Source: Candidatus Bathyarchaeota archaeon | GTDB taxonomy: Archaea > Thermoproteota > Bathyarchaeia > TCS64 | Length of the DNA stretch: 64,000 nucleotides | NCBI GenBank assembly: GCA_963769425.1 | Contig: CAVYLP010000006.1 | Location: 576,001 to 640,000, forward strand | Reading direction: 5' to 3' | Shown: piece by piece, positions 2,499 through 56,190 of the stretch | Numbering within the stretch: position 1 is the stretch's first letter | Layout of the letters: each line of letters begins with the position of its first letter | Translations under genes and position numbers: made by a program | The notes under the pieces: generated by a model | The model's input: only the letters and a program-made list of their open reading frames with translations | What the model was told of the DNA's origin: nothing | Database searches by the model: none

Positions 2499-2574
2499 GC
2501 GGTTGTAGTCTAGCCTGGTAGGATACCTGCCTGCCACGCAGGAAACCCGGGTCCGAATCCCGGCGACCGCACCA
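2499..2574 (+). tRNA. tRNA-Gly(GCC)
   Basis: Cloverleaf: acceptor GCGGTTG/CGACCGC, anticodon stem CCTGC/GCAGG with loop CT-GCC-AC, T-arm CCGGG-TCCGAAT-CCCGG, encoded CCA. Confidence 0.95.
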
Positions 2575-2580
2575 AACATT

Positions 2581-3225
2581 CTAACCAGCTTTCTCGGCGA
2601 TTAGAATCCACGCTATATGATAATGGGTTCTTGCTCCGGGGTGGGGCTCCTCGTAATCGTGCTCGTAGAGCTCCTTGATGTTGAGGGCGGAGAAGTCGCG
2701 GCGCAGTTCATCCTCCGTTGAGAGGTGGATGTATTTGCCGTCGACCCAGGTGTTCTCCTCGCCCTGAACGGGGGTGCCGACGCCGTAGTGCTCCTTATCG
2801 TTGACGGAGATGGCGTTCATGTAGAGTACGCCGTCCGGACCGAGTAGGCGGGCCACGTGCTCCGCGAGGTCTCGGCGCCCCTCGGGGGGTAAAAGGTGGT
2901 AGAGGTTTGAGACGAGGACGGCGTCGAAGTAGCTGTGCAGGTCGCGGAAGTCCATGAGCCTGAACTCGGCTTTCGTCGCCTGCGCCTTCAAGGCGTTCTC
3001 CTTCGCCATCTCTATGGCCTTCTCCGAGATGTCGATGCCCAGGACCCTGAAGCCGAGGCTCTTTGCGACGTATATGGAGTCGCGGCCGTAGCCGCAGCCG
3101 ATGTCTAGGACGCGTAGCGGCCTGCCCTTGTGGCGTATGAGCCGCTTGGAAGCCTCTAGGGCGAGTTCACTGGGCCTCTCTCCCCATATCTGCCTGTATT
3201 TGTTGTATTCGGCGTCCCAGGACAA
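2581..3225 (-). CDS. Class I SAM-dependent methyltransferase
   Basis: VLDIGCGYGRD motif I and GIDIS motif II; probable TTG start at 3225 downstream of a TTTAAT box (the longer ORF overlaps mgtA). Confidence 0.85.
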   Translation of the reverse strand: MSWDAEYNKYRQIWGERPSELALEASKRLIRHKGRPLRVLDIGCGYGRDSIYVAKSLGFRVLGIDISEKAIEMAKENALKAQATKAEFRLMDFRDLHSYFDAVLVSNLYHLLPPEGRRDLAEHVARLLGPDGVLYMNAISVNDKEHYGVGTPVQGEENTWVDGKYIHLSTEDELRRDFSALNIKELYEHDYEEPHPGARTHYHIAWILIAEKAG

Positions 3226-3266
3226 TCGTCGTCGCCCAACCGAAACGGGTACACGGATTAAAGCGT

Positions 3267-5810
3267 TTACCCACTCTCCAGGAGGTGCGTGTACCTCCGG
3301 TAGAAGAGGAGCTTGACGCCCTCGACCATGGCGAGGTAGGCGGCGACGAGGCCAGCGAGGAGGATGTAGAAGCTCGGCGGGGGCGGTATGAAGCCGAATA
3401 GAGCGCCGACTGGCGTGTACGGGAGCACATAGGCGGACGCCAGTATGGCGAGGCATGCTGCCACTAAGTACTTGCTTGGCCTGCTCCTCCAGAAGGGGAC
3501 GACCTGCGTCCTGATGACGAAGACAACGAGGGTCTGCGTCGTGAGGGACTCGAGGAACCAGCCCGTCTGGAAGAGGCCCTGAGAGGCAGAGAAGACCCAT
3601 AGCATCACGAAGAAGGTGAGGAAGTCGAATAGGCTGCTTATGGGACCGAACCAGACCATGAAGCGGCGTATGAATCGGATGTTCATCTTCTTCGGCTTCT
3701 CGACGTAGGACTCGTCGACGTGGTCGGCGGTGATGGTGGTCTGACTGAGGTCGTAGAGGAGGTTGTTGAGGAGTATCTGGGTGGGCAGCATGGGGAGGAA
3801 GGGAAGAAATAGGGAAGCGCCGGCGACGCTGAACATGTTGCCGAAGTTGCTGCTAGTCCCCATCATTATGTACTTCATCGTGTTGCCGAAGGTGCGCCGC
3901 CCCTCGATGACACCGTCCTGGAGGACCTTGAGGTCCTTCTCCAGCAGGATTATGTCCGCGCTCTCCTTTGCGACGTCGACTGCGTTGTCGACGCTGATGC
4001 CTACATCTGCTCGTTTGAGGCTGGGGGCATCATTTATGCCGTCGCCGAGGAAGCCGACGACGTGACCGTTCCTGCGGAGGGCTCCCATGATCCGGTCCTT
4101 CTGGCTCGGGTTTACTCTCGCGAAGACGTTGGCGTCCTCGACGACGCGCTGGATGGCGTCGTCCCCCATTAGGGCGAGGTCGCTGCCGAGGACCACCCGC
4201 TTAACCTTGAATCCGAGCTGCTCGCAGGTGTGGAGGGTGACCAGCTCGTTGTCCCCAGTGAGTATCTTGAGTTCGACGCCGACACGGTTTAGGAGGTTGA
4301 GGCTCTCCATCGCGGTCTGCTTCGGGGGGTCGAGGAAGGCGACGAAGCCGAGGAAGACCATGTCACTCTCGTCGGCAATGGAGTAAGTTGGCTTCTCGTC
4401 CCTTAGCTTACGGTATGCGACGCCGAGGACCCTGAAGCCCTGCGCGCTTAACTCCCGGTGCCGGGAGATTATCCTCTCCTTAACCTTCTCGGTGAGGTCG
4501 GAGGCCCCGTCAGCAATGTCAGCGTGGGCGCAGACACTCAGCACCTCCTCCGGTGCCCCCTTAGTAAGTAGGAGCCTTCCCCCGTTCTTCGAGGCGACTA
4601 TCGAGACGCGGCGCCTCACGAAGTCGAAGGGTATCTCGTCGACCTTCTCATATTCGGTTATTGGCATGTTCTTGAAGGCCAGAATGGCCTCGTCGAGGGG
4701 GCTACGGAGCCCCGTCTGGTAGTAGCTGTTGAGGTAGCCGTACTCAAGGACCCTGTCGTCGTCTTTGCCATCAATGTCGACGTGGAGGACTAGGGTGATC
4801 TTGTTCTCGGTGAGTGTGCCCGTCTTGTCGGTGCAGAGGATGTCCATGCTGCCGAAGTTCTGTATGGAGCTTAGGCGCTTGACGAGGACGCCGTGCCTGC
4901 TCATAGCGAGGGCGCCCTTGCTGAGGTTAACGGAGATTATCATAGGGAGCAGCTCTGGGGTGAGGCCGACGGCGAGGGCGACGCTGAAGAGGAGGGACTC
5001 AAGGACGCCCCGGCGGAATAGGGCGTTTACGAAGAAGACGAAGATGACGAGGACGAAGGTCACCTGCATTATCAGGTAGCCGAAGCGGCGGAGGCCCCGC
5101 TCCATCTCCGTCTCCTCGCCCCGGGCGGCGAGGCTCTTCGCGATCTTCCCGTACTCCGTGGAGCCGCCTGTCCTGCCAACGACGGCGGTCGCTGTCCCGC
5201 TGACGACGCTGCTTCCCGTGAAGGCGATGTTCGTCCAGTCGGTGAGGGATGCCCCCGCCTCGGCGAGTGGGGCGGGGCCCTTCTCGACTGGAAAGGACTC
5301 ACCGGTGAGGGCGGACTGGTTAAGGAAGAAGTCCTTCGCGGTGAGCAGGCGTGAGTCGGCGGGGATCATGTCTCCAGCGCTGAAGTATAGGATGTCACCG
5401 GGGACGACCTCGGTGAATTTTATCTCCTTCTTCACCCCGTCTCTTATGGCGGTGCAAGTGGAGACGAGTTTGGAGCGGAGTAGCTCCGCGGCTTGGTGGG
5501 CCTTGGACTGCTGGTAGAAGTCGAGGGAGGCGCTCGCGATTATTATGGTGAATATTATGGCGGAGTCTATGACCTCGCCGAAGTAGAGGGAGACGGCGCC
5601 GGCGAAGATCAGGAGGAGTATGAGGGGGCTGCGGAACTGGAGGAGGAACTCGACGGCGGTGGCGCGTCTCTTACGGGCCGCTACCTCGTTCGCGCCGTAT
5701 GCCTCAAGGCGCCTCTCAACCTCGGCCGTTGTGAGCCCCTGCTCGGTCGAGCCGAGTCTCTTGAGCACGTCGGCCTGGGGTAGGGTCAGGAGGTCGGCCA
5801 CTGAGACCAT
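3267..5810 (-). CDS. mgtA: Magnesium-translocating P-type ATPase (P3B)
   Basis: DKTGTLT phosphorylation site, TGES, GLTPELLP, GDGINDAP, and SSNFGNMFS / QILLNNLLYD typical of MgtA. Confidence 0.93.
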   Translation of the reverse strand: MVSVADLLTLPQADVLKRLGSTEQGLTTAEVERRLEAYGANEVAARKRRATAVEFLLQFRSPLILLLIFAGAVSLYFGEVIDSAIIFTIIIASASLDFYQQSKAHQAAELLRSKLVSTCTAIRDGVKKEIKFTEVVPGDILYFSAGDMIPADSRLLTAKDFFLNQSALTGESFPVEKGPAPLAEAGASLTDWTNIAFTGSSVVSGTATAVVGRTGGSTEYGKIAKSLAARGEETEMERGLRRFGYLIMQVTFVLVIFVFFVNALFRRGVLESLLFSVALAVGLTPELLPMIISVNLSKGALAMSRHGVLVKRLSSIQNFGSMDILCTDKTGTLTENKITLVLHVDIDGKDDDRVLEYGYLNSYYQTGLRSPLDEAILAFKNMPITEYEKVDEIPFDFVRRRVSIVASKNGGRLLLTKGAPEEVLSVCAHADIADGASDLTEKVKERIISRHRELSAQGFRVLGVAYRKLRDEKPTYSIADESDMVFLGFVAFLDPPKQTAMESLNLLNRVGVELKILTGDNELVTLHTCEQLGFKVKRVVLGSDLALMGDDAIQRVVEDANVFARVNPSQKDRIMGALRRNGHVVGFLGDGINDAPSLKRADVGISVDNAVDVAKESADIILLEKDLKVLQDGVIEGRRTFGNTMKYIMMGTSSNFGNMFSVAGASLFLPFLPMLPTQILLNNLLYDLSQTTITADHVDESYVEKPKKMNIRFIRRFMVWFGPISSLFDFLTFFVMLWVFSASQGLFQTGWFLESLTTQTLVVFVIRTQVVPFWRSRPSKYLVAACLAILASAYVLPYTPVGALFGFIPPPPSFYILLAGLVAAYLAMVEGVKLLFYRRYTHLLESG

Positions 5811-27625: not shown

Positions 27626-28615
27626 CTACTTTTCGAGCCCGCTCATCTTCCTAATCTGCCTGCCGACCTTCTCGATCTCGAGACCGTCGACCTCGTCCAT
27701 GAGTGCCTTGAAGTGCTTTGAGCCGTCCTTGTACTCGGCCATCCACTCCTTCGCGAACTTGCCGCTCTGGACATCCTTGAGCACCTTCCTCATGTTCTCC
27801 TCGACGCGGTCGTCTACGATGACAGGGCCGACTGTGAGGCCACCCCACTTCGCCGTGTCACTCACGGCGCGGTACATCCCACCGATGCCCGCCTTGTAGA
27901 TCAGGTCGACGATGAGCTTCAGCTCGTTGCAGACCTCGAAGTAGGCAAGCTCAGGAGGATAACCCGCGTCGACGAGGACCTTGAAGCCCCTCCGGATCAG
28001 CTGATCTGCGCCACCGCAGAGGACCGCTTGCTCGCCGAATAGGTCCTCCTCAGTCTCGTCCTTGAACGTGCTCTCGAGAACCCCAGCCTTACCGCTGCCC
28101 AGCGACTTGGCGAGGGCGAGCGCCGTCTGAAGCGCCTTCCCCGAGGCGTCCTGGTGGACGCTGACGAGGGCCGGGACACCGAAGCCCGCCTCGTACTGGC
28201 GGCGAAGCTCAGCGCCTGGGCTCTTCGGGGCGACCATTATCACATCGACGTCCTTCGGCGGCTTGATGGCGCCGTAGAGGATGTTAAATCCGTGTGCGAA
28301 CTGGAGTGTCTTCCCCTTCTTCATCGCGAGGGCGACCTCCTCCTTCCACACTGTGGGCTGAGCCATGTCGGGGACGAGCATGAGGACTATGTCCCCCTGC
28401 TGCGCGGCCTCGAGTACCGTCGTCACCTTGACGCCGTCTGCTTGGGCCTGCTTCCAGCTCTTGCCCCCGGGGCGGAGGCCAACGACGACGTTGACCCCGC
28501 TGTCCTTCATGTTGAGGGCCTGCGCCCTCCCCTGACTACCGTAGCCTATGACGGCCACCGTCTTGCCCTTCAGAACCTTGTCGTCTATGTCCTTATCGTG
28601 GTATACCTTCACCAT
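27626..28615 (-). CDS. ilvC: Ketol-acid reductoisomerase
   Basis: GYGSQG, FAHGFNI, MVAPKSPG, ETEEDLFGEQAVLCGG, AYFE. Confidence 0.97.
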   Translation of the reverse strand: MVKVYHDKDIDDKVLKGKTVAVIGYGSQGRAQALNMKDSGVNVVVGLRPGGKSWKQAQADGVKVTTVLEAAQQGDIVLMLVPDMAQPTVWKEEVALAMKKGKTLQFAHGFNILYGAIKPPKDVDVIMVAPKSPGAELRRQYEAGFGVPALVSVHQDASGKALQTALALAKSLGSGKAGVLESTFKDETEEDLFGEQAVLCGGADQLIRRGFKVLVDAGYPPELAYFEVCNELKLIVDLIYKAGIGGMYRAVSDTAKWGGLTVGPVIVDDRVEENMRKVLKDVQSGKFAKEWMAEYKDGSKHFKALMDEVDGLEIEKVGRQIRKMSGLEK

Positions 28616-28619
28616 AGTG

Positions 28620-29126
28620 TCACTTCTCCAGCTTTAGCCGCCCCTTCTCGACGGCCGTGACGCCCGTCCTAGAGACCTCCTCGACCCCTATGGGCTTAAC
28701 GGCCTCGAGGAACGCGTCTATCTCCTCAGACTCACCCGTGACCTCGGCTATAAGGTTGTCCGGCTCGATATTCAGGATGAGGCCGTGGTAGTCGTTCACC
28801 AGCTTGAGGGCCTCCTCCCTCGCCATCGGGTCGGTTGTTGTGAGCTTCACCAGCGCCAGCTCCCTGTTGACTGTGCGTAGCGGGTCGAGGCGCTTCACCT
28901 CGATCACGTCCACCATCTTGTCGAGCTGCTCGACCACCTGGTTGACTCCGCGGGCGTCCGCCTGCACGACGATGGTTATGCGGACCGTGTCGTCGTCGAG
29001 CACCGTCCCAGCCGTGATGCTGTGTATGTTGAAGTTCTTCCGACGGAACATGTTGCTTATGTTGAACAATACACCCGGCCTGTTCTCGACGAGGAACGCG
29101 ACAACGTGCATCTCACTCATGGTCAT
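28620..29126 (-). CDS. ilvN: Acetolactate synthase regulatory subunit (copy 1)
   Basis: LVENRPGVL, NIHSIT, QLDKMVDVIEV, RELALVK, RTGVTA. Confidence 0.92.
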   Translation of the reverse strand: MTMSEMHVVAFLVENRPGVLFNISNMFRRKNFNIHSITAGTVLDDDTVRITIVVQADARGVNQVVEQLDKMVDVIEVKRLDPLRTVNRELALVKLTTTDPMAREEALKLVNDYHGLILNIEPDNLIAEVTGESEEIDAFLEAVKPIGVEEVSRTGVTAVEKGRLKLEK

Positions 29127-30814
29127 GCCTCCAGGAGCGCGTCCTTCAGCCCCGCGCCCGGCGGGACTATCGGGTACACGTTCTCCTCCGGGTCAATCGG
29201 GACATCGATGACGGTCGAGACATCGCTCTTGATGGCGCGCCTGACGGCTGCTTGGAAGGATTCGAGGGTGTCGACTCTAACCCCCTCAGCGCCGTACGCC
29301 TCGGCGAGCTTCACCATGTCGGGGTTCCCCTTGAGCTTCACCGCGGAGTAGCGGTGGTCGAAGAAGAGGCGCTGCCACTGTGCGACCATGCCGAGCATGT
29401 GATTGTTCAACACTACCACCACGACCGGAAGCTCCTCCTCTACGCTCGTCGCCATACTGTTCTCCGTCATGCCGAAGCTACCGTCCCCCGCTATATCGAC
29501 GACGGGTACGTCTGGCCTCGCGGCTTTAACGCCAATAGCGGCTGGGAAGCCCCAGCCCATCGTGCCGAGGCCTCCACTAGTGAAGAATGTCCTCGGGTCG
29601 TAGGCGTCGTAATGCAGAGCGGCCCACATCTGACACTGCCCAACCTCAGTTGTGACAATCGCCTCCCGCGGGAGAGTGCTTCGAAGCGCCTTGATAACGT
29701 CTGGTGCCCTTAGGTAACCCTCATTGTGCCCATTACCGTTCGGGTTAACCTGACAACGGAACTCAGCCACCTTCTTGCTCCACTGAGAGCCCACCTCCCC
29801 GCCCGCGCGGAGCTTACTCACGTTATAGAGGAGGCCGCGGAGGCCGAGGGCGGCGTCCCCGACGACGCGGGTCACGGTTTCGACGTTTTTGTCTATCTCG
29901 CTCCTGTCGATGTCGAGGTGGATGATCTTCGCATTTGGCGCGAAGCTCTTCACAGCGCCCGTCGTCCTGTCACTTAGGCGCGCCCCAACGATGAGTAGTA
30001 CATCCGCCTCGGGGACGAGGTTGTTCGCCGCCTGTGTTCCGTGCATCCCGCATAAGCCGAGGCTGAGCGGGTGGTCTGCAGGGAAGGAGCCCTTGCCCAT
30101 GAGTGTGGTCGCCGTAGGCGCCATGAGATACTCGCTGAGGGCGACGAGCTCGCGTGTCGCGCCAGAGTTAATCACACCGCCACCAGCGACCACGACGGGT
30201 CTCTGCGCCTTCGCGAGGAGCGTCGCAGCCCACTCAACCTCGCGTGGATCTGGCTGATAGTTAGGGTGGTACCCCCTGAGCTTAACGGTCTCCGGGAAGC
30301 TGATGTCCTCCACGTCGGTCGTGACATCCTTGGGGAGATCCACGAGGACGGCTCCCCTCCTCCCCGACGAGGCGATCTGGAAAGCGGCCTTAACCGCCCT
30401 CGGTATCTCCGATGCCTTCCTCACCTGCATGTTATACTTAGTCACGGAGGCGCTACACCCGATGATGTCGACTTCCTGGAAAGCATCAGTACCGATCGTG
30501 GCGCGTGTAACCTGTCCAGTGAAGGCGACGACGGCGCTGGAGTCGATGTGAGCTGTAGCCACACCGGTGACGAGGTTCGTTGCCCCCGGGCCCGAGGTCG
30601 CGAGACATACACCGACGCCGCCTGTGGCCCTTGCGTAGCCATCAGCCATGTGCGCAGCCCCCTGCTCATGCCGGGCCAGAATGAACCTGAAGTCACCATT
30701 TAGTATCTCGTCGCAGAGCGGGATGACGACACCGCCAGGGAGCCCGAAGACGTGCTTGACGCCCTCCATCTCGAGGGACTTGACGAATGCCTTAGTACCA
30801 GCCATCTCAACCAA
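29123..30814 (-). CDS. ilvB: Acetolactate synthase large subunit (copy 1)
   Basis: RHEQGAAHMADGYAR, TSGPGATN, TSGGLGTMG, GDGSF, LGMVAQWQ; TTG start at 30814 inferred from GGAGG plus 9 nt and alignment to copy 2. Confidence 0.95.
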   Translation of the reverse strand: MVEMAGTKAFVKSLEMEGVKHVFGLPGGVVIPLCDEILNGDFRFILARHEQGAAHMADGYARATGGVGVCLATSGPGATNLVTGVATAHIDSSAVVAFTGQVTRATIGTDAFQEVDIIGCSASVTKYNMQVRKASEIPRAVKAAFQIASSGRRGAVLVDLPKDVTTDVEDISFPETVKLRGYHPNYQPDPREVEWAATLLAKAQRPVVVAGGGVINSGATRELVALSEYLMAPTATTLMGKGSFPADHPLSLGLCGMHGTQAANNLVPEADVLLIVGARLSDRTTGAVKSFAPNAKIIHLDIDRSEIDKNVETVTRVVGDAALGLRGLLYNVSKLRAGGEVGSQWSKKVAEFRCQVNPNGNGHNEGYLRAPDVIKALRSTLPREAIVTTEVGQCQMWAALHYDAYDPRTFFTSGGLGTMGWGFPAAIGVKAARPDVPVVDIAGDGSFGMTENSMATSVEEELPVVVVVLNNHMLGMVAQWQRLFFDHRYSAVKLKGNPDMVKLAEAYGAEGVRVDTLESFQAAVRRAIKSDVSTVIDVPIDPEENVYPIVPPGAGLKDALLEA

Positions 30815-30912
30815 ACGCGGACGCCTCCAAAGAGTTGAATCGTGGACCAAGCAACGATGCTAAGTCCTTTGAGGAACTCACTATAAACTGACTAGACTTA
30901 ACTGGGGCAGAG

Positions 30913-30936
30913 CTACCGAATAAAGCGATACCCCAT
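30913..30936 (-). CDS. Leader mini-ORF 2 of ilvB copy 1 (MGYRFIR*)
   Basis: ATG directly follows the TAG of mini-ORF 1; GGAGG 9 nt upstream; positional homolog at 52784. Confidence 0.55.
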   Translation of the reverse strand: MGYRFIR

Positions 30937-30981
30937 CTACGCCACCCTCCACTCGGCGGCCATGATAAAGCGATACCCCAT
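30937..30981 (-). CDS. Leader mini-ORF 1 of ilvB copy 1 (MGYRFIMAAEWRVA*)
   Basis: GGAG 9 nt upstream; 14 codons, same length and N-terminus as the homolog at 52739. Confidence 0.55.
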   Translation of the reverse strand: MGYRFIMAAEWRVA

Positions 30982-31025
30982 GACACCAATCTCCAAACGG
31001 TATGTAGCCTGAAGAGTGATAGCAT

Positions 31026-31040
31026 CGAATAAAAGGTTTG
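31026..31040 (-). promoter_or_regulatory. BRE/TATA promoter of ilvB copy 1 (CAAACCTTTTATTCG)
   Basis: Near-identical to 52679-52694; both lie exactly 44 nt from the mini-ORF 1 ATG. Confidence 0.7.
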
Positions 31041-31125
31041 TGAAAGTAATTATAATACACACAATCAGCTCCCCACTACACTTAACACCCCAGAACGCCC
31101 GATAACAAACATAGAGGCGGAATAG

Positions 31126-32346
31126 ATGAGTAAGCTGACCTACCTAGAATGTTCGAAGTGCGGTGAACACTATGACGCCGATCAGGTCCAGACTGTCTGC
31201 AGGAAATGCGGCAAACCCCTCTTCGCGAGGTACGACCTCGAAGCCGCGAAGGAGACGATGACGAAGCGGGAGCTCGTCGGGAGGGTCTCCTCGATGTGGA
31301 GGTACAGGGAGATACTCCCCGTGAGGAAGAGCGAGAACGTGGTCACCCTAGGGGAGGGATGGACACCGCTCACGCCTACGTCGCGCCTCGGTGAGACTCT
31401 TGGCCTTTCCAACCTACTCGTCAAGGACGAGGGTATTATCCCCACAGGAAGCTTCAAGGCGAGGGGGCTATCGGCTGCCATCAGTAAGGCGAAGGAGCTC
31501 GGAATTAAGCGAGTCGCGCTCCCCTCCGCTGGAAACGCCGCTGGCGCAATGGCCGCCTACGGAGCGCGTGCTGGCCTCGAGGTCTATGTTTTCATGCCTG
31601 AGGATGCACCAAAGGTCAACGCCGTTGAGTCAGATGTCGTCGGCGCCAAAGTCGTCTACGTCAAGGGCCTCATAAGTGACGCGGGGAAGCTAGTCAAGGA
31701 TGGAATCCCTGAGATGGGTTGGTTCAGCGTCGCCACCCTCGGGGAGCCCTACAGGGTCGAGGGGAAGAAGACGATGGGCCTCGAGGTCGCGGAGCAGCTT
31801 GATTGGAAACTTCCAGACGTAATCATCTACCCCACCGGCGGGGGTACCGGTATAATCGGGATGTGGAAGGTCTTCGAGGAGTTGGAGGAGATGGGCTGGA
31901 TCGGGAGCGAACGTCCCCGAATGGTAAGCGTCCAAGCCGAGGGGTGCAGTCCCATAGTCAAGGCCTACAGGGAGGGGAAGGAGGAGAGTGAATTCTTCGA
32001 GAACGCCCAAACCGTCGCAGCGGGGCTCCGCGTCCCGAAGGCCCTCGGCGACTACCTCATCCTAAGAGCCGTGAGAGAGAGCAAGGGTACGGCAATCGCC
32101 GTCACAGACGACGAGTTGATCAACGACGTCCGCCTGATAAGCCGCCTTGAGGGCATCTTCGCCTGCCCCGAAGGCGCTGCAACCATCTCCGCTCTGAGGA
32201 AGATGGTTGAAGCGGGGGAGGTCGACCGTGATGAGCAAGTCGTTCTATTCAATACTGGTTCCGGGCTCAAGTACACCGACCTCTTCACGGTCAACGCGCC
32301 GGTCGCCGATCCCAAGAAGCCCTTCGATTACAAGAGCCTCAAGTAG
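31126..32346 (+). CDS. thrC: Threonine synthase
   Basis: N-terminal Zn ribbon, LGEGWTPL, PTGSFKARG PLP Lys, SAGNAA, EGKKT, YPTGGG. Confidence 0.9.
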   Translation: MSKLTYLECSKCGEHYDADQVQTVCRKCGKPLFARYDLEAAKETMTKRELVGRVSSMWRYREILPVRKSENVVTLGEGWTPLTPTSRLGETLGLSNLLVKDEGIIPTGSFKARGLSAAISKAKELGIKRVALPSAGNAAGAMAAYGARAGLEVYVFMPEDAPKVNAVESDVVGAKVVYVKGLISDAGKLVKDGIPEMGWFSVATLGEPYRVEGKKTMGLEVAEQLDWKLPDVIIYPTGGGTGIIGMWKVFEELEEMGWIGSERPRMVSVQAEGCSPIVKAYREGKEESEFFENAQTVAAGLRVPKALGDYLILRAVRESKGTAIAVTDDELINDVRLISRLEGIFACPEGAATISALRKMVEAGEVDRDEQVVLFNTGSGLKYTDLFTVNAPVADPKKPFDYKSLK

Positions 32347-51037: not shown

Positions 51038-52672
51038 ATGGCAACCGAGAGGCTCGCCGCCAAGCTTAGGGGCTTCGGGCTCGAGAAGGATGAGGCGGAG
51101 ATCTACGTCTTCATCTCCGCATCGGGCCCTACCCCCGCCAGGGTCGTGGCGAGGAGGTTCAACCTCAACCGCATGAAGGCCTACAGGAGCCTCAAGGCGC
51201 TGGAGGAGAAGGAGTTCGTCCAGCGCGTCATGGGTAGGCCGGTGAAGTTCGTCGCCGCCCCCCTTAGGGTCGTCATCGACCGCCAGATGGGTAGCCTCCA
51301 CCAGACGATCTCTGACCTCGAAGCGAACCAAGACGCCTTCATCCGGGAGTGGGAGAACCTCGCGAGCGGCTCGGAGCAGCGCCCGGAGGAGCCGAGGTTC
51401 CGCATCTTCCAGGGGAGGCAGCAGGTCTTCGAGTTACTACTGGAGATGTACGACAGGGCGCATGATACAGTCAGGCTAGTCACGACGACGAGTGACCTCG
51501 CCCGCCTCAGCCTCTGGGGGCTCGACGACAAGCTGAAGGCGCTGAACAGGCAGGGGAAGAAGATCAGGGTCCTCACTCAGATCGACTCGGAGAACTGGAA
51601 GGAGGTCGAGCCTTACAGTGGTTTCGCGGAGACCCGACATATTACCCTTCAGACACCGATCAGGTTCGCCATCATAGATGGTGGTGAGGCCCTGACAACC
51701 GTCGCCATGGACGACTCTATGAGCATGACGACGAGCGCCGACACTGGCCTCTGGACGGACGCGCCGAGCTACGTGGCGGCCCTCGGGATATTCTTCGATG
51801 CCCTTTGGAGCCTCGCACCTGACGCGGAGTCGGTTATAGAGTCACTGAAGACGGGGGAGCCGACCCCCGAGATCAGGACGTACACGACCCAGGAGGAGTA
51901 TGTCTCCATCTTCAGGGGCATGATCGCCAAAGCCACTAGGACGGTAGACATCATTGCTAGGAACGCGACGATGCTCCCGGTGCCGCTCTCGGGGCTCGAG
52001 GAGGTGGCGGGTAGGGGTGTAAACGTGAGGCTGCTCACCCGAACGGATGAGGAGACCCTACCAGAGGTGAGCAGGATCGCCGATACGCCAATAGTCGTAT
52101 CGGAGAACGCCGCCGTCACCGACCTCGTCTTCCTCGCCGTCGACGGGAAGGAGGTTCTCCTTAATGTGCCCCACGCCGAGTCGCAGAAGCGTACCATCTG
52201 GTCCAACATGCCCGCCTACGTGGGCACAATGCTGCTCGTCTTCAAGGACTACTGGGAGCTAGGTAAGCCTCTGCAGGAGAGGCTGCGCCTCGCTGCCCAG
52301 CGGCGGAGGGCGGAGCTTCTATCCAAGAAGATCCGTGAGGGATTCGAGGGTGCGGGCTGGGCGGCGGAGACTCCCGGCGTCGTCGCCGGCACATCTTCCA
52401 AGAGCTACACCTTCGACGTCCTCGCAAGGGACCCCGCCAACACGGACAGCCGCCTCTGCATCGATGTGGTCGTGAACGAGCCCGTCTATAACAAGATAAT
52501 CGAGAGGAGCAACGTCGTCCCCGACCTGGCTGCCTCAAGATACGTCATCGCCTCCATGATGCCCTTCAAGACGGAGGAGCTGAGGCTCGCCGAACTGTAC
52601 CGCATCAGGATTATCCACTCGGACACGGAGGAGGGGCTCGTCTCCTCCCTCGTCAAGCTGGTGCAGAGATAG
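51038..52672 (+). CDS. TrmB-family regulator (wHTH, two effector domains, C-terminal restriction-endonuclease-like domain)
   Basis: FGL...EAEIY...Y.SL..L.EK.FV....RP.KF; duplicated 'IID..E.L' domains; G.S.KSYTFDVLA C-terminal motif. Confidence 0.8.
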   Translation: MATERLAAKLRGFGLEKDEAEIYVFISASGPTPARVVARRFNLNRMKAYRSLKALEEKEFVQRVMGRPVKFVAAPLRVVIDRQMGSLHQTISDLEANQDAFIREWENLASGSEQRPEEPRFRIFQGRQQVFELLLEMYDRAHDTVRLVTTTSDLARLSLWGLDDKLKALNRQGKKIRVLTQIDSENWKEVEPYSGFAETRHITLQTPIRFAIIDGGEALTTVAMDDSMSMTTSADTGLWTDAPSYVAALGIFFDALWSLAPDAESVIESLKTGEPTPEIRTYTTQEEYVSIFRGMIAKATRTVDIIARNATMLPVPLSGLEEVAGRGVNVRLLTRTDEETLPEVSRIADTPIVVSENAAVTDLVFLAVDGKEVLLNVPHAESQKRTIWSNMPAYVGTMLLVFKDYWELGKPLQERLRLAAQRRRAELLSKKIREGFEGAGWAAETPGVVAGTSSKSYTFDVLARDPANTDSRLCIDVVVNEPVYNKIIERSNVVPDLAASRYVIASMMPFKTEELRLAELYRIRIIHSDTEEGLVSSLVKLVQR

Positions 52673-52678
52673 AGCCTA

Positions 52679-52694
52679 CAAACCTTTTTATTCG
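52679..52694 (+). promoter_or_regulatory. BRE/TATA promoter of ilvB copy 2 (CAAACCTTTTTATTCG)
   Basis: Matches the copy-1 promoter; 44 nt to the mini-ORF 1 ATG. Confidence 0.7.
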
Positions 52695-52738: not shown

Positions 52739-52783
52739 ATGGGGTATTGCTTTGTCGAGCCCCCGACCACGGGGGAGAGTTGA
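52739..52783 (+). CDS. Leader mini-ORF 1 of ilvB copy 2 (MGYCFVEPPTTGES*)
   Basis: GGAGG 7 nt upstream; 14 codons; stop abuts the next ATG. Confidence 0.55.
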   Translation: MGYCFVEPPTTGES

Positions 52784-52810
52784 ATGGGGAATCGCATTCT
52801 TAGTCCCTAG
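52784..52810 (+). CDS. Leader mini-ORF 2 of ilvB copy 2 (MGNRILSP*)
   Basis: TGA-ATG junction; GGAG upstream; homolog of 30913-30936. Confidence 0.55.
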   Translation: MGNRILSP

Positions 52811-52873
52811 ATTCCCGTCCGAGACCGAGTTATGGATTGAAGATCCAAGGAACACTTCTGGAGGATTCCATGC

Positions 52874-54559
52874 ATGCCTGAGATGACCGGCGCCGAGGCA
52901 TACGTCAAAGCGCTTGAGAAGGAGGGCGTCGAGTATATCTTCGGGATAACCGGCGCCGCGATCATACCGATCTGCGATGAGTTGCTGAAGTCGAAGATGC
53001 GCTACGTCGGGGGTGTCCACGAGCAGGGCTCGACCCACATGGCTGACGGCTACGCGCGCGTCTCTGGGAGGCCCGGAGTCGTGCAGGTGACGAGCGGCCC
53101 GGGTGCCACGAATATAGTGACCGGACTCGCCACGGCGCAGCTCGACTCGTCGCCCGTCGTCGCACTCACTGGGCAGGTCCCACTCAGTATGGTGGGCACC
53201 GACGCCTTCCAGGAGGTCGACATCATAGGCATCACTGCGTCCGTCACCAAGCACAACATACAGGTCATGGAGGCGGCGGAGATACCGCACGCCATCAAGT
53301 CGGCCTTCTACATCTCATCTACCGGTAGAAAGGGCGCGGTCCTCGTCGACATACCGAAGGACACACAGACCGACAAGGCCGAGATGACCTTCCCCGACAG
53401 CGTTGAGTTCAGAGGCTACCACCCGAACACTGAGCCAAATCCCCAGGAGATGCACTGGGCCGCGACGCTCCTCACAAAGGCGCGGAGACCCGTAATAATC
53501 GCCGGCGGGGGGGCCGTGGCATCCGGAGCCACTGCTGAGCTCGTCGAGCTAGCCGAGATGCTGCAGGCGCCCGTCGCCCACAGCCTAATGGGCAAGGGCG
53601 CGATTCCGAGCAACCACCCGCTCTGCCTCGGCCTGTGCGGCATGCACGGCCGCGTCGAGGCGAACTACATCGTCCCCGAGGCCGATGTCCTCCTAGTGGT
53701 CGGGGCTCGCTTCAGCGACCGCACAACCGGCTCCCTCAGCGGCTTCGCTCCTAACGCGAGGATAATCCACATCGACGTGGACAGGAGCGAGATAGACAAG
53801 AACGTCGACAGCATCACCCGAATAGTCGGTGATGCGAAGCTCGCCATCCGCGGTATAAGGGAGAAGATTGCCCAGCAGAGGGCTACAGGTCCGACCGACG
53901 CCGCTCTCGTGAAGCGCATAGCCGAGCTCAGGGCGCAGACCAACACGCTGTATACTGACGCTCCACTCTCGGGCCCACAAGTAATAAGGGCCATCAGGAG
54001 GGCGATGCCTCCCGAGAGCATCGTTGTCACAGACGTCGGGCAACACCAGATGTGGGCTGCGCAGCACTATGACGTCCGCGGCCCCGGCGAGTTCTTCACG
54101 AGCGGGGGACTGGGCACGATGGGCTGGGGCACGCCGGCAGCGATAGGGGCGAAGGCAGCGAGGCCAGACCTCCCAGTGCTTAACATCTCGGGAGATGGCA
54201 GCTTCGCCATGACGGAGAACAACCTGGCGCTCGCCGTAGACGAGGGATTCCCGATAACCGTCGTTATTCTGAACAACGGAGTCCTCGGCATGGTCGCTCA
54301 GTGGCAGCGCCTCTTCTATGACCGCAGGTACAGCACCATTAAGAGGCCGAAACACCCGGACTTCGCCAAACTCGCGGAAACCTACGGGGCGACCGGCGTG
54401 AAAGCCGAGTCAATAAAGGACATCGAGACCGCAATAAAACGGAGCATAAAGGAGAAGCATACCACTGTCATCGACGTACCGATCGACCCCGAGGAGAACG
54501 TTTACCCTATGATCCCGCCGGGCATGGGTCTCAAGGACATCCTCTTGGGAGGCGCATGA
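52874..54559 (+). CDS. ilvB: Acetolactate synthase large subunit (copy 2)
   Basis: HEQGSTHMADGYAR, TSGPGATN, TSGGLGTMG, GDGSF, LGMVAQWQ. Confidence 0.95.
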   Translation: MPEMTGAEAYVKALEKEGVEYIFGITGAAIIPICDELLKSKMRYVGGVHEQGSTHMADGYARVSGRPGVVQVTSGPGATNIVTGLATAQLDSSPVVALTGQVPLSMVGTDAFQEVDIIGITASVTKHNIQVMEAAEIPHAIKSAFYISSTGRKGAVLVDIPKDTQTDKAEMTFPDSVEFRGYHPNTEPNPQEMHWAATLLTKARRPVIIAGGGAVASGATAELVELAEMLQAPVAHSLMGKGAIPSNHPLCLGLCGMHGRVEANYIVPEADVLLVVGARFSDRTTGSLSGFAPNARIIHIDVDRSEIDKNVDSITRIVGDAKLAIRGIREKIAQQRATGPTDAALVKRIAELRAQTNTLYTDAPLSGPQVIRAIRRAMPPESIVVTDVGQHQMWAAQHYDVRGPGEFFTSGGLGTMGWGTPAAIGAKAARPDLPVLNISGDGSFAMTENNLALAVDEGFPITVVILNNGVLGMVAQWQRLFYDRRYSTIKRPKHPDFAKLAETYGATGVKAESIKDIETAIKRSIKEKHTTVIDVPIDPEENVYPMIPPGMGLKDILLGGA

Positions 54560-54560
54560 T

Positions 54561-55055
54561 ATGCCACTGCACACAGTTAGCTTCCTCGTCGAGAACAAGC
54601 CCGGGGTCCTATTCAAGGTCGCCAACCTCTTCAGGCGCCGAGGCTACAACATACAGAGCCTCACCGTCGGCCCCGTCGAGGGGAGCCCACTCAGTAGGAT
54701 GACCGTCGTCGTCGACGCCGAGAGCCGCATCCTCAACCAGATAGTCGAGCAACTCGACAAGATGGTTGACGTCGTCAAGGTGAAGCGCCTTGACCCCATC
54801 AGGACTCTGAGTAGGGAGCTGCTCCTGATTAAGCTGAAGACTTCTGACCCGATAGCGAGGATCGAGGCGGTGAACACTGTGAACGCCTACCACGGCCTCA
54901 TACTCGACGTCGAGCCCGACATCCTCATTGCGGAGGTCACGGGTCCCACCGACGAAATCGACGGGTTCCTGAAGAGGATCGCCCCTATCGGCATCGAGGA
55001 GATGAGCAGAACGGGAGCGGCCGCGATCGAGAGGGGCAACGTCAAGCTCGCATAA
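54561..55055 (+). CDS. ilvN: Acetolactate synthase regulatory subunit (copy 2)
   Basis: LVENKPGVL, NIQSLTVG, QLDKMVDVVKV, RELLLIK. Confidence 0.92.
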   Translation: MPLHTVSFLVENKPGVLFKVANLFRRRGYNIQSLTVGPVEGSPLSRMTVVVDAESRILNQIVEQLDKMVDVVKVKRLDPIRTLSRELLLIKLKTSDPIARIEAVNTVNAYHGLILDVEPDILIAEVTGPTDEIDGFLKRIAPIGIEEMSRTGAAAIERGNVKLA

Positions 55056-55146: not shown

Positions 55147-56190
55147 ATGTGCCAGCTTGTCGGGTACATCGGCGACAGGCCGATCGCCCCATTCATACTC
55201 ACGGCCCTAGAACTGCAGGAGGCCTACTTCGGCGCGCACGCCACGGGTATGGGCGTAGTCGACCCGAAGGGGAAGATCCAGATCCAGAAGGCGACGGGTC
55301 CAGTCGCCTCCGTGAAGAAGTCGACCAGCATCACGAAGCTCAAGGGGAACGTCGGCATCGGTCACAGCAGGTACAGCCTCATCGCGCGTGAGGACCCTCG
55401 CTGCGATATAGACTCGATGTGCCACCCATTCACCAACGACGCCGGCGACATCGCGATGATGCACAACGGCGACATCGCCAACTTCAAGGAGCACTGGGAC
55501 CTCCTCAAGCCCAACCACAAGTTCAAGGGCTACAACCCCGCCGTCGACTGGATAACCGACAGCGAAGTCGCCGTCCATATGATCGACGAGGAGGTCAAGA
55601 AAGGCGCCGGGTTCGACGAAGCGCTACGCACCGTAATGCCTAAACTCACGGGTCAAGTCCTCTTATGCCTCATATGTGAGAAGGAACCCGACGCCATCTG
55701 GATCGCCAACAGGTGGCAGCCCTGCTACCTTGGCGTCGGAAAGGACGAGGCGATGTGGGTCAGCAGTAAGGTCGGCCTCGAACCCGTCAAGGACGAGCTG
55801 AAGAAGATCTACTCGCCGCCGAAGAACAGCCTCATCAAACTCACCAGGGGCAAGGCGGACGTTCAGATCCTCGACCCAAACTACAAGGTCGCCGACCTGA
55901 AGCTGAACAAGAAGATACTCAAGGAGGGGATACTGAGCATCCTTGGCGTCTCGGACCTCGACTTCCACCGCCTCTGGTACTCACTCGACAAGACCCACTG
56001 GGCAAAGGCATACGGAGTCGACCAGGGTGAGTGGAAGACCCTGCGCCGAGATTACGGCGTCAGCATCGTCAACCCCCTTATAGAGACCCTAGATGAGTTG
56101 ATCGAGGCGGGGAAGGTCGAGAGGAGCATCGACTACCGCCGCGAGGGGTGTACCGCAAAGACGCCGCGGTTCCTCTTCAGCCTAGTTTAA
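55147..56190 (+). CDS. Class II (Ntn) glutamine amidotransferase-domain protein with extra C-terminal domain
   Basis: MCQLVG N-terminal Cys, IGHSRY, HPF, HNGDIAN, TDSEV. Confidence 0.8.
   Translation: MCQLVGYIGDRPIAPFILTALELQEAYFGAHATGMGVVDPKGKIQIQKATGPVASVKKSTSITKLKGNVGIGHSRYSLIAREDPRCDIDSMCHPFTNDAGDIAMMHNGDIANFKEHWDLLKPNHKFKGYNPAVDWITDSEVAVHMIDEEVKKGAGFDEALRTVMPKLTGQVLLCLICEKEPDAIWIANRWQPCYLGVGKDEAMWVSSKVGLEPVKDELKKIYSPPKNSLIKLTRGKADVQILDPNYKVADLKLNKKILKEGILSILGVSDLDFHRLWYSLDKTHWAKAYGVDQGEWKTLRRDYGVSIVNPLIETLDELIEAGKVERSIDYRREGCTAKTPRFLFSLV

Follow-up and report, generated by a model that had tools for sequence, protein, structure and literature searches.

Candidate amino-acid-sensing +1 frameshift cassettes in the leaders of ilvB and other amino-acid genes of Bathyarchaeia

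The window analysed here, that is, a stretch of 64,000 nucleotides (nt) of a Candidatus Bathyarchaeota archaeon genome (GCA_963769425.1, contig CAVYLP010000006.1), carries two copies of the acetolactate synthase gene ilvB, and this report concerns the leaders of these genes, in particular a short repeated motif, hereafter the cassette, with which each of the tandem mini open reading frames (mini-ORFs) in the leaders begins. In copy 1, which lies on the minus strand throughout, a box resembling a transcription factor B recognition element and TATA element (CAAACCTTTTATTCG, 31040-31026), presumably the promoter, is located 44 nt 5′ of the ATG of mini-ORF 1, and a Shine-Dalgarno-like (SD-like) GGAG (30993-30990) precedes the same ATG at a spacing of 9 nt. 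Mini-ORF 1 (30981-30937) reads ATG GGG TAT CGC TTT ATC and continues to a TAG, encoding the peptide MGYRFIMAAEWRVA, and this TAG is directly abutted by the ATG of mini-ORF 2 (30936-30913), which reads ATG GGG TAT CGC TTT ATT CGG TAG and encodes MGYRFIR. The first 17 nt are the same in both. An earlier note on this DNA had described two SD-led mini-ORFs sharing these 17 nt, and all of its elements were re-found on the minus strand. Within cassette 1 we distinguish the ATG (30981-30979), an SD-like GGGGT (30979-30975), the putative slippery codon TTT (codon 5, 30969-30967) and the putative sensor codon ATC (codon 6, Ile, 30966-30964); in cassette 2 the corresponding slippery and sensor codons are TTT (30924-30922) and ATT (Ile, 30921-30919). 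A spacer hairpin with arms GCCGCC (30960-30955) and GGTGGC (30946-30941; -12.4 kcal/mol, z -2.06) separates the two cassettes, and the SD of mini-ORF 2, GGAGG (30950-30946), is situated in its loop and 3′ arm.

The reading frame shifted by +1 relative to the mini-ORFs runs from 30980 to 30807 on the minus strand, as part of an ORF spanning 30807..31025, and provides 57 sense codons counted from cassette 1 and 42 counted from cassette 2. It ends with the TGA at 30809-30807 within TTGGTTGAGATG, that is, on the start of ilvB. For ilvB copy 1 (acetolactate synthase large subunit, 30814-29123, minus strand) the start may be either TTG 30814 or ATG 30805, which are in frame with each other; TTG 30814 is the most likely start; it follows the SD of ilvB (GGAGG, 30828-30824) by 9 nt, and a relative (L106) keeps the upstream start while the downstream ATG is ATA there. 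The position of this SD is kept 20-25 nt 5′ of the downstream ATG in the 46 leaders compared. On the 3′ side of ilvB copy 1 follow ilvN (28620-29126) and then ilvC (27626-28615), also on the minus strand. NCBIfam scores were above the curated cut-offs for all of these genes (TIGR00118, 719 bits for ilvB copy 1 and 698.5 bits for copy 2, cut-off 538; NF008864, 155 bits for ilvN, cut-off 119; NF004017, 491 bits for ilvC, cut-off 336). Across related genomes an AT-rich peak appears at -53..-47 in 98 first cassettes and a G-rich run at -13..-9 in all cassettes, and the 3′ end of the 16S rRNA of the window's own genome reads ...GGATCACCTCCT.

A search of the window for the 17-mer with up to 3 mismatches gave four matches, namely the two of copy 1 and two more at 52739 and 52784, the members of both pairs being 45 nt apart; in 100 shuffles the mean was 0.06 matches and none reached four. 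The second pair belongs to ilvB copy 2 on the plus strand, where the architecture is as the earlier note had claimed: a promoter-like box similar to that of copy 1 (52679-52694), likewise 44 nt from the first ATG, a first mini-ORF of 14 codons (MGYCFVEPPTTGES, 52739-52783) with slippery TTT at 52751-52753 and sensor GTC (Val) at 52754-52756, a spacer hairpin (CCCCCG 52760-65, CGGGGG 52770-75) and a TGA-ATG junction to the second mini-ORF (MGNRILSP, 52784-52810). The same note had placed a branched-chain amino acid at codon 6 and specifically Ile in both copy 1 mini-ORFs, which is correct for copy 1; in the second mini-ORF of copy 2, codon 6 is CTT (Leu, 52799-52801), and the Ile there is codon 5 (ATT, 52796-98). 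The +1 frame of copy 2 (52740-52886) comprises 48 sense codons, and its stop TGA (52884-52886) overlaps ATG 52883 as ATGA, 10 nt past the likely ilvB start ATG 52874. In this operon ilvB (52874-54559) is followed by ilvN (54561-55055).

The cassette has the conserved form ATG-GRGG-NAU-NGY-NUU-codon 6. The exact pattern ATGGGGTATNGYTTT, a 15-mer with two free positions, was present in 162 of 401 Bathyarchaeia genomes and in 69 of the 70 genomes of the window's family, usually in several copies each, while a reversed-pattern control yielded one match in total and an 18-mer version with RTY yielded none in 131 genomes from other classes of the phylum. Upstream of ilvB, the motif occurs at 44 of 46 Bathyarchaeia-type loci versus none of 32 Nitrososphaeria-labelled loci, and the comparison of leaders across Bathyarchaeia that the earlier note had called for showed the SD and start codon, the branched-chain amino acid at codon 6 and the stop-ATG junction to be conserved. 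In the window's own genome (G000) the cassette is found at four loci only, namely those of ilvB-1, ilvB-2, an ilvA-like threonine dehydratase gene and valS, and a generalised pattern combined with a frame filter returned the same four and no others. Variant cassettes were also recognized, i.e. ATG RGG NAT AGY NTT before trpE, and, in genome G037, TGT TAT replacing TAT TGY; since such variants exist, the true spread must be wider than the exact pattern shows. On these sequence comparisons, the cassette is a conserved family of Bathyarchaeia and not a product of chance.

An origin of the pattern in assembly errors, pseudogenes or chance ORFs could be imagined, given that the genomes are metagenome-assembled genomes (MAGs) and that valS of G000 is itself interrupted. 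However, the same arrangement recurs in well over 100 genomes from many records, the reversed-pattern control gave the single match mentioned above, and contigs from RNA libraries of relatives, admittedly weak evidence, contain no cassette indels; we regard an artefact as extremely improbable. These RNA-library contigs (about 88% alike) bridge 30702-31063 and 30591-31063, with no indel listed in the cassettes and leader indels summing to 3 nt. They extend upstream of the promoter, do not establish transcription and are silent on the transcript start, on rare slippage and on a trans-frame product, and stretches that they leave uncovered carry no weight; the search of RNA runs returned small shares only (0.05-0.13).

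A few matches were set aside. MGYRFNG followed by a stop (G000 C6:282245) was taken as chance, since ribosomal and initiation-factor genes flank it and its strand is the wrong one, and for L007/L066 (codon 6 ACC), L064 (TGG), L067, L035 and L036/37 neither the geometry nor the gene fits. Two contigs recorded under names of bacteria, L130 (as Patescibacteria group bacterium) and L151 (as Candidatus Desulfaltia sp.), encode a Bathyarchaeia-type ilvB at 66-70% identity, L130 also with a complete two-cassette leader; both are probably mis-binned contigs. The valS gene of G000 (L002 1548-3534; G000 C1:387047...) is interrupted about 1 kb in, leaving an open frame of 537 amino acids (aa) against 810-850 aa in 19 relatives. 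Its family match stops at residue 324 and an overlapping ORF (2560-3534) continues in another frame, which is a frameshift or an assembly error.

Codon 6 was left free in the search patterns, and the residue it encodes follows the downstream gene. It is GTC or GTT (Val) at all 22 valS loci, ATC or ATT (Ile) at all 32 loci of a LeuA/CimA-family synthase, ATY (Ile) in all four ilvA cassettes, from two loci (G000 and L027), and TGG (Trp) at all 14 trpE loci; the 103 cassettes upstream of ilvB have Ile (59), Val (34) or Leu (10) at this position without exception. Apart from the TGG of trpE, codon 6 always ends in a pyrimidine alongside this pathway match. By comparison, 37 motif-like matches elsewhere have codons 6 scattered across 15 residues, and a cassette without T at the second base of codon 6 was found in only 7 of the 401 genomes. 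Tandem ilvB leaders combine Val+Ile, Val+Leu, Ile+Ile or Val+Leu+Ile. These patterns support the proposal that codon 6 acts as a regulatory (specifier) codon, and here the suggestion of the earlier note that codon 6 does the sensing is borne out by the match of residue to pathway across loci.

The assignment extends to paralogues. Genome G037 has two LeuA/CimA-family paralogues (L203, L204; G037 C2), one with a variant cassette, ATGGGGTGTTATTTTATTTAG, and its gene in the +1 frame, and the other with an ordinary ATG nine codons before the DTTLRDGEQ motif; of the two, the paralogue with the cassette is thus probably the (citramalate) enzyme of the Ile pathway. G000 is without a cassette-bearing synthase; its only LeuA homologue has an ordinary start, and the cassette is on ilvA instead. 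The pathway logic is thus tight, in that an Ile cassette goes with the Ile-specific entry enzyme, whichever enzyme serves in that role. A survey for further ilvA loci returned 22 matches, all of which were more distant dehydratase paralogues (53-68% identity), none with a cassette. A separate observation concerns the ilvB leader L075 (G021 C1:498056-498160), which holds three tandem cassettes 45 nt apart with codons 6 for Val (GTC), Leu (CTC) and Ile (ATT), all in register with one 80-codon +1 frame ending in TGAgATG.

What follows the cassette falls into two arrangements. In the first, the gene itself lies in the +1 frame of the cassette, as is the case for the synthase or trpE at 33 of 33 fused loci, while the zero frame stops after 6-23 codons. 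At 26 of the 33 there is no in-frame ATG, GTG or TTG between the upstream stop and the cassette, at 25 there is none before the catalytic DTTLRDGEQ motif, and at 4 of the 14 trpE loci a +1-frame TGA overlaps the ATG. The fused products are full-length by NCBIfam (NF002085, 634 bits; TrpE-arch, 509 bits, cut-off 512). In the second arrangement, at ilvB, valS and ilvA, the leader has a +1 frame without stops over 37-68 codons, and the stop that ends it falls on the start codon of the gene. Between the last cassette and the start of ilvB, this frame is open in 44 of 44 leaders, as against none and one of 44 for the other two frames and a shuffle expectation of 0.20. The +1 stop lies 1 nt before the conserved ATG (-4) in 40 of these 44 leaders, in an [A/T]TG-NNT-GAG-ATG context and hence on the likely true start; the remaining four have ATGA (two), -5 (one) or -13 (one). 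Among the 22 valS leaders, 13 have a +1 stop that overlaps the start (NTGA), and in every one of the 22 this stop falls within the first 11 codons; the start region of ilvA is TTGGCTGA. At the fused loci and in the ilvB leaders alike, then, the relevant frame appears to be reached solely by way of the zero-frame start, and what is made or set in motion downstream would depend on it.

Within two close clades, all 23 gap runs in the leaders are 3 or 6 nt long, and no codon position is favoured by the substitutions, which are about equally frequent at all three. The +1 frame of the leader is thus conserved while its peptide is not, as is expected if only the passage of the ribosome matters. Taken together, an open +1 frame, or a gene placed in it, points to +1 ribosomal frameshifting as the likely output of the cassette. 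It could be argued that the 17-nt repeat instead serves, as DNA operator or RNA target, to bind some regulatory protein or RNA, its ORF features being incidental: it is a direct repeat with fixed spacing just 3′ of a promoter, its nucleotides are conserved including synonymous positions, and a TrmB-like gene is located upstream of copy 2. A binding site would not, however, account for a spacing and leader length that preserve the reading frame, for stops that abut the next ATG in 28 of 30 two-cassette leaders, for an SD at the right distance, for coding regions that begin with the motif in their +1 frame, or for a codon 6 that varies with the gene, and no Rfam family matches it. We therefore consider a binding site very unlikely.

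The nucleotide conservation within the cassette helps to locate the predicted shift. Positions 1-9, 11, 13-15 and 17 are near-invariant, and every one of the 146 cassettes has TT at positions 14-15, so that codon 5 is NUU, a P-site codon able to re-pair one base on. All 133 cassettes with A or G as the first base of codon 6 use TTT as codon 5; of the 23 with C or T there, 6 have TTT and the other 17 have ATT, GTT or CTT. TTT is thus disfavoured in the latter context, in which tRNA-Phe, after slipping by +1, would sit on a codon cognate to it. Moreover, only 2 of 146 cassettes have a G at position 10, where it would give rise to an ATG in the +1 frame. Positions 3-7 (GRGGU) are complementary to the 3′ end of 16S rRNA and end 5 nt before codon 5. 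Some codons of the motif are rare in G000 (TTT 4.8 per thousand versus 30.6 for TTC, and TAT 7.0 versus 26.6 for TAC), which argues that the constraint acts on nucleotides. The codon-5 rule, the near-absence of G at position 10 and the codon-6 rule together indicate that the ribosome would shift while codon 5 occupies the P site and codon 6 awaits decoding in the A site, a hungry-codon situation. A tRNA lead was dropped: ARAGORN found no tRNA-Gly(CCC), yet GGG is a common codon.

One set of observations does not sit easily with this placement. The variable positions 7, 10, 13 and 16 are the third positions of the +1 frame, and the changes seen in trpE and G037 are conservative in that frame (G-I/V-A/V/I-F/L). 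This makes a shift right after initiation the main alternative, that is, recoding at the cassette start, with one base skipped between ATG and GGN, at a fixed rate and giving a peptide M-G-I-A-L..., codon 6 acting in some other way or not at all. The trpE and G037 variants indeed change zero-frame residues radically while the +1 residues stay hydrophobic. Such a start-site event nevertheless leaves unexplained the strict match of codon 6 to pathway, an A or G at position 16 being synonymous in the +1 frame, as well as the dependence of codon 5 on codon 6 and the stop-ATG relay between tandem cassettes. Furthermore, a ribosome stalled at the zero-frame codon 6 would block the ATG, so that starvation would reduce expression, the opposite of what is needed. 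Recoding at the start is thus unlikely in our judgement.

The spacing between cassettes shows its own regularities. In two-cassette ilvB leaders the stop of the first mini-ORF directly abuts the second ATG in 28 of 30 cases. A 5-7 bp G+C stem, whose 3′ part contains the SD of the next cassette, begins some 7 nt 3′ of the first codon 6 base and keeps its place while its sequence changes (GCCGCC/GGUGGC in copy 1; CCCCCG/CGGGGG; UCCCUC/GAGGGG; CCGUCC/GGAUGG), the arms shifting register in the alignment. A spacer hairpin is present in 28 of 28 spacers, with a z score against dinucleotide shuffles averaging -1.4 and lying below -2 in 7 of the 28.

We read each mini-ORF as an amino-acid-sensing, i.e. 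hungry-codon, +1 programmed-frameshift cassette, and put the probability of this reading at about 0.65. Ribosomes would start at the cassette ATG, the first start codon of the mRNA, and after five codons would hold a weakly paired NUU (here UUU) in the P site, with the SD-like GRGGU 5 nt upstream able to pair with the 16S 3′ end and the sensor, codon 6, in the A site (AUC in cassette 1 and AUU in cassette 2, both Ile). With charged tRNA-Ile plentiful, codon 6 would be decoded and the ribosome would stop at the nearby zero-frame stop; after that of mini-ORF 1, it would restart at the abutting ATG of mini-ORF 2 and undergo a second test. When the tRNA is scarce, slow decoding of codon 6 would presumably become rate-limiting, and the waiting ribosome would slip by +1 (UUU to UUA) and read the +1 frame through the leader. 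It would then terminate at the TGA (30809-30807) on the ilvB start and either reinitiate there or open the site by local unfolding, such that ilvB-ilvN-ilvC would be translated, while the SD of ilvB itself may supply basal expression. The stop-on-start geometry suggests termination-reinitiation rather than unmasking of the ilvB start. Tandem cassettes would behave as an OR gate, for Ile and Ile in copy 1 and for Val and Leu in copy 2: unshifted ribosomes would pass to the next sensor, and shifted ones would read through it in the +1 frame, which works because the cassette spacing is always a multiple of three. At the fused loci, i.e. the LeuA/CimA-family synthase with an Ile codon and trpE with a Trp codon, the enzyme would be made only after a shift. 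The evidence for this reading is comparative, in that it consists of the conservation of the cassette, the match of codon 6 to pathway, the kept +1 frame and stop position, the startless +1 fusions and the dependence of codon 5 on codon 6; from it we infer that ribosomes actually shift, that starvation raises the shift and that termination at the start codon turns ilvB on.

The earlier note had proposed a different output, namely that a ribosome pausing at codon 6 would refold the leader and free the SD of ilvB. Such stalling-type translational attenuation, with no frameshift, would also make use of the match between codon 6 and pathway, and it could draw on several pairings: the ilvB SD can pair with CCTCAAAGG in the window, GGGG...CCCC can pair around cassette 2, a pairing that is seen again in the form of a conserved ACCCC box, and a hairpin follows cassette 1. 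The two pairings singled out earlier, TGGGGTA with TGCCCCA and CCTCAAAGG with TCTTTGGAGG, do exist in the sequence, the latter with one bulge, and lacked comparative support as a conserved switch. RNAalifold on 30 leaders returned 0 consensus pairs and no covariation, leader folding energies were ordinary (mean z -0.35, with 3 of 46 below -2), the SD of ilvB, with a mean pairing probability of 0.64, is no more paired than chance suggests, and no terminator-like site was detected in 30700-31150. The proposed refolding is not supported by these results. Stalling alone would in addition leave unexplained that synthase and trpE genes without starts of their own are joined to the cassette in its +1 frame, the 44 of 44 open +1 frames, the 3-nt-only indels, and the dependence of codon 5 on codon 6, and we judge it unlikely, if marginally less so than recoding at the cassette start. 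The leader does share with leader-peptide attenuators an ORF with an SD, a start and a codon for the regulated amino acid, a single such codon per ORF; terminator and antiterminator hairpins were not found in the region given above. A search against Rfam at the gathering threshold identified only 2 tRNAs in the window and, with E up to 1, no match in 30760-31130. The cassette leader is accordingly not a member of the T-box, of an Rfam family or of the attenuators, because the structures that define these are absent. Ile and Val codons in the +1 leader ORF are not clearly depleted and its composition is like that of untranslated sequence, which is neutral for the idea of such a depletion.

Several points weigh against the frameshift reading. 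Bathyarchaeia are uncultured, and all of the evidence is computational, i.e. from comparison of related MAGs; the counts overstate independence because the genomes are related, and a Fisher p for the dependence between codons 5 and 6 cannot be taken at face value. With a single sensor codon in each cassette, the gain would be low or modest compared with classical leader peptides, and a ribosome shifted at cassette 1 still meets codons for Ile (among them an ATC), Val and Leu as it reads the +1 frame. The SD-like element lies 5 nt from the slippery codon rather than the 3 nt of prfB. ilvB has its own well-spaced SD and start codon, and no conserved structure masking them was found in the leaders. 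Lastly, decayed cassettes occur at L098, L110 and L141. The earlier note had named leaders that keep the motif and lose the ATG, SD or frame as speaking for an operator or aptamer; those encountered were isolated decayed copies, not a family (the second cassette of L110 begins with ACG and the +1 frame of the first cassette of L098 is closed).

If the frameshift reading is taken one step further, Bathyarchaeia would own a modular specifier-codon switch, composed of a start, an SD-like anchor, NUU and one exchangeable sense codon, that converts the charging of one tRNA species into a change of frame. Three wirings would be in use: the LeuA/CimA-family synthase and trpE would be fused to the switch, ilvB, valS and ilvA would be reached by relay to the next start, and tandem copies would form an OR gate for Val, Leu and Ile, possibly with a series two-step gate at hisS. 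We hold this broader proposal with somewhat less assurance than the reading of the individual mini-ORFs, as the better bet by a little.

In bacteria, the leader peptides of ilv, trp, his and pheST contain regulatory codons that name the amino acid sensed through its charged tRNA, the ilv genes are under multivalent control by Ile, Val and Leu, and a tRNA synthetase gene belongs to the attenuation regulon. The cassette leaders are similar in their short ORFs with pathway codons, in the multivalent control predicted for ilv and in having a tRNA synthetase gene, valS, in the regulon. They differ in having one regulatory codon per ORF instead of runs, no terminator/antiterminator hairpins, multivalency derived from tandem ORFs and, as proposed, a change of frame as the output instead of transcription termination. 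In T-boxes, one exchangeable specifier codon likewise sets the amino acid sensed and the regulon likewise mixes aminoacyl-tRNA synthetase and biosynthetic genes; however, the T-box binds uncharged tRNA in a structured, untranslated leader, whereas the codon of the cassette is in a translated ORF with no conserved structure. To our knowledge, no archaeal equivalent of leader-peptide attenuation or of T-boxes is known.

Among frameshift systems, prfB has an SD-like element upstream of its shift site, 3 nt from the slippery codon. There, as proposed for the cassette, a weakly paired P-site codon re-pairs one base on, and the fused synthase and trpE genes share the layout of prfB exactly. The cassette would nevertheless sense a sense codon, via aminoacyl-tRNA, where prfB senses a stop codon read by its own product; its codon is exchangeable (Ile, Val, Leu, Trp, perhaps His), its shift site is five codons from the start with the SD-like element 5 nt away, it is found in archaea, and in ilvB, valS and ilvA the +1 frame would encode nothing and only deliver the ribosome to the next start. 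According to a review of recoding (Atkins et al. 2016, PMC5009743), RF2 mRNA has a short zero frame, and the functional product is encoded beyond it in the +1 frame. That review also describes ketolide-induced frameshifting in the ermC leader, in which shifted ribosomes pass the leader stop and permit initiation at the downstream gene (PMC5009743). This is the closest analogue of the output proposed for ilvB, with the differences that the inducer is a ribosome-bound drug and not the supply of aminoacyl-tRNA, that no specifier codon is involved, and that in the cassette leader we found no masking structure and the new frame is open exactly to the start codon. Antizyme is presented there as a case in which frameshifting is both sensor and effector of a metabolic feedback loop, and UUU as a natural +1 shift codon in a symbiosis-island activator of Mesorhizobium (PMC5009743); these two respond to other signals (polyamines in the case of antizyme), have a stop codon or another A-site context and lack a modular codon. 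The hungry-codon situation itself is described for E. coli, and the natural role of hungry-codon frameshifting is treated as unclear, in the same review (PMC5009743). For Archaea, a 2021 review (PMC8211752) counts only one programmed frameshift as shown, a -1 event in fucA1. No description of a mechanism like the one proposed here turned up in the literature searched, with subscription journals and supplementary files outside the search and sources seen in part, and in that sense we found no precedent for such control in archaea.

If correct, the proposal would provide an archaeal counterpart of attenuation and T-boxes and the first natural regulatory use of hungry-codon frameshifting, one short portable cassette linking amino-acid sensing in cis in archaea with a natural role for this type of frameshift. 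On a practical level, gene callers would be unable to start the cassette-bearing synthase and trpE genes correctly, annotations may show these genes shortened or as pseudogenes, and an auxotrophy for Ile or Trp may be wrongly assigned to Bathyarchaeia. The cassette would also make a compact natural part for tRNA-charging sensors.

Elements related to the cassette were seen with His at codon 6. In the window, at 36701-36643 on the minus strand, there is a cassette-like GTG GGG GAT TGC CTT CAC (VGDCLH..., codon 6 His) with a conserved 13-codon +1 ORF (WGIAFT....VH. and a stop). This copy is not next to hisS, the hisS of G000 (C3, ~230392) having a normal ATG, and downstream of it the +2 frame runs to a point some 45 nt short of an ORF for a 75-aa protein of unknown function. 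In genus g5 (G021, G212; L205, L206), a homologous cassette with AUU-CAC (His) is located about 200 nt 5′ of hisS; its 13-codon +1 ORF ends with a second NGY-GUU-CAU unit, after which the next frame is open for 63-65 codons and, in L205, ends TGA-A-GTG on the hisS start. This arrangement suggests that the hisS leader in g5 may undergo two successive His-dependent shifts.

At copy 2, the gene 3′ of ilvB2-ilvN (55147-56190, plus strand) is not ilvC; the product is glutamine amidotransferase class-II-like, with weak N-terminal matches to GlmS and PurF. On the 5′ side, a gene for a 544-aa protein (51038-52672, plus strand) with weak N-terminal TrmB-like helix-turn-helix matches (E ~5e-5) ends 7 nt before the promoter-like box, and a role of this protein as transcription regulator of the copy 2 operon is possible. 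At copy 1, a threonine synthase gene (31126-32346, plus strand; NF006050, 628 bits) diverges from the ilvB-1 leader, and the 320-nt intergenic region common to both contains a second AT-rich box, tattataatta, at about 31056-31046.

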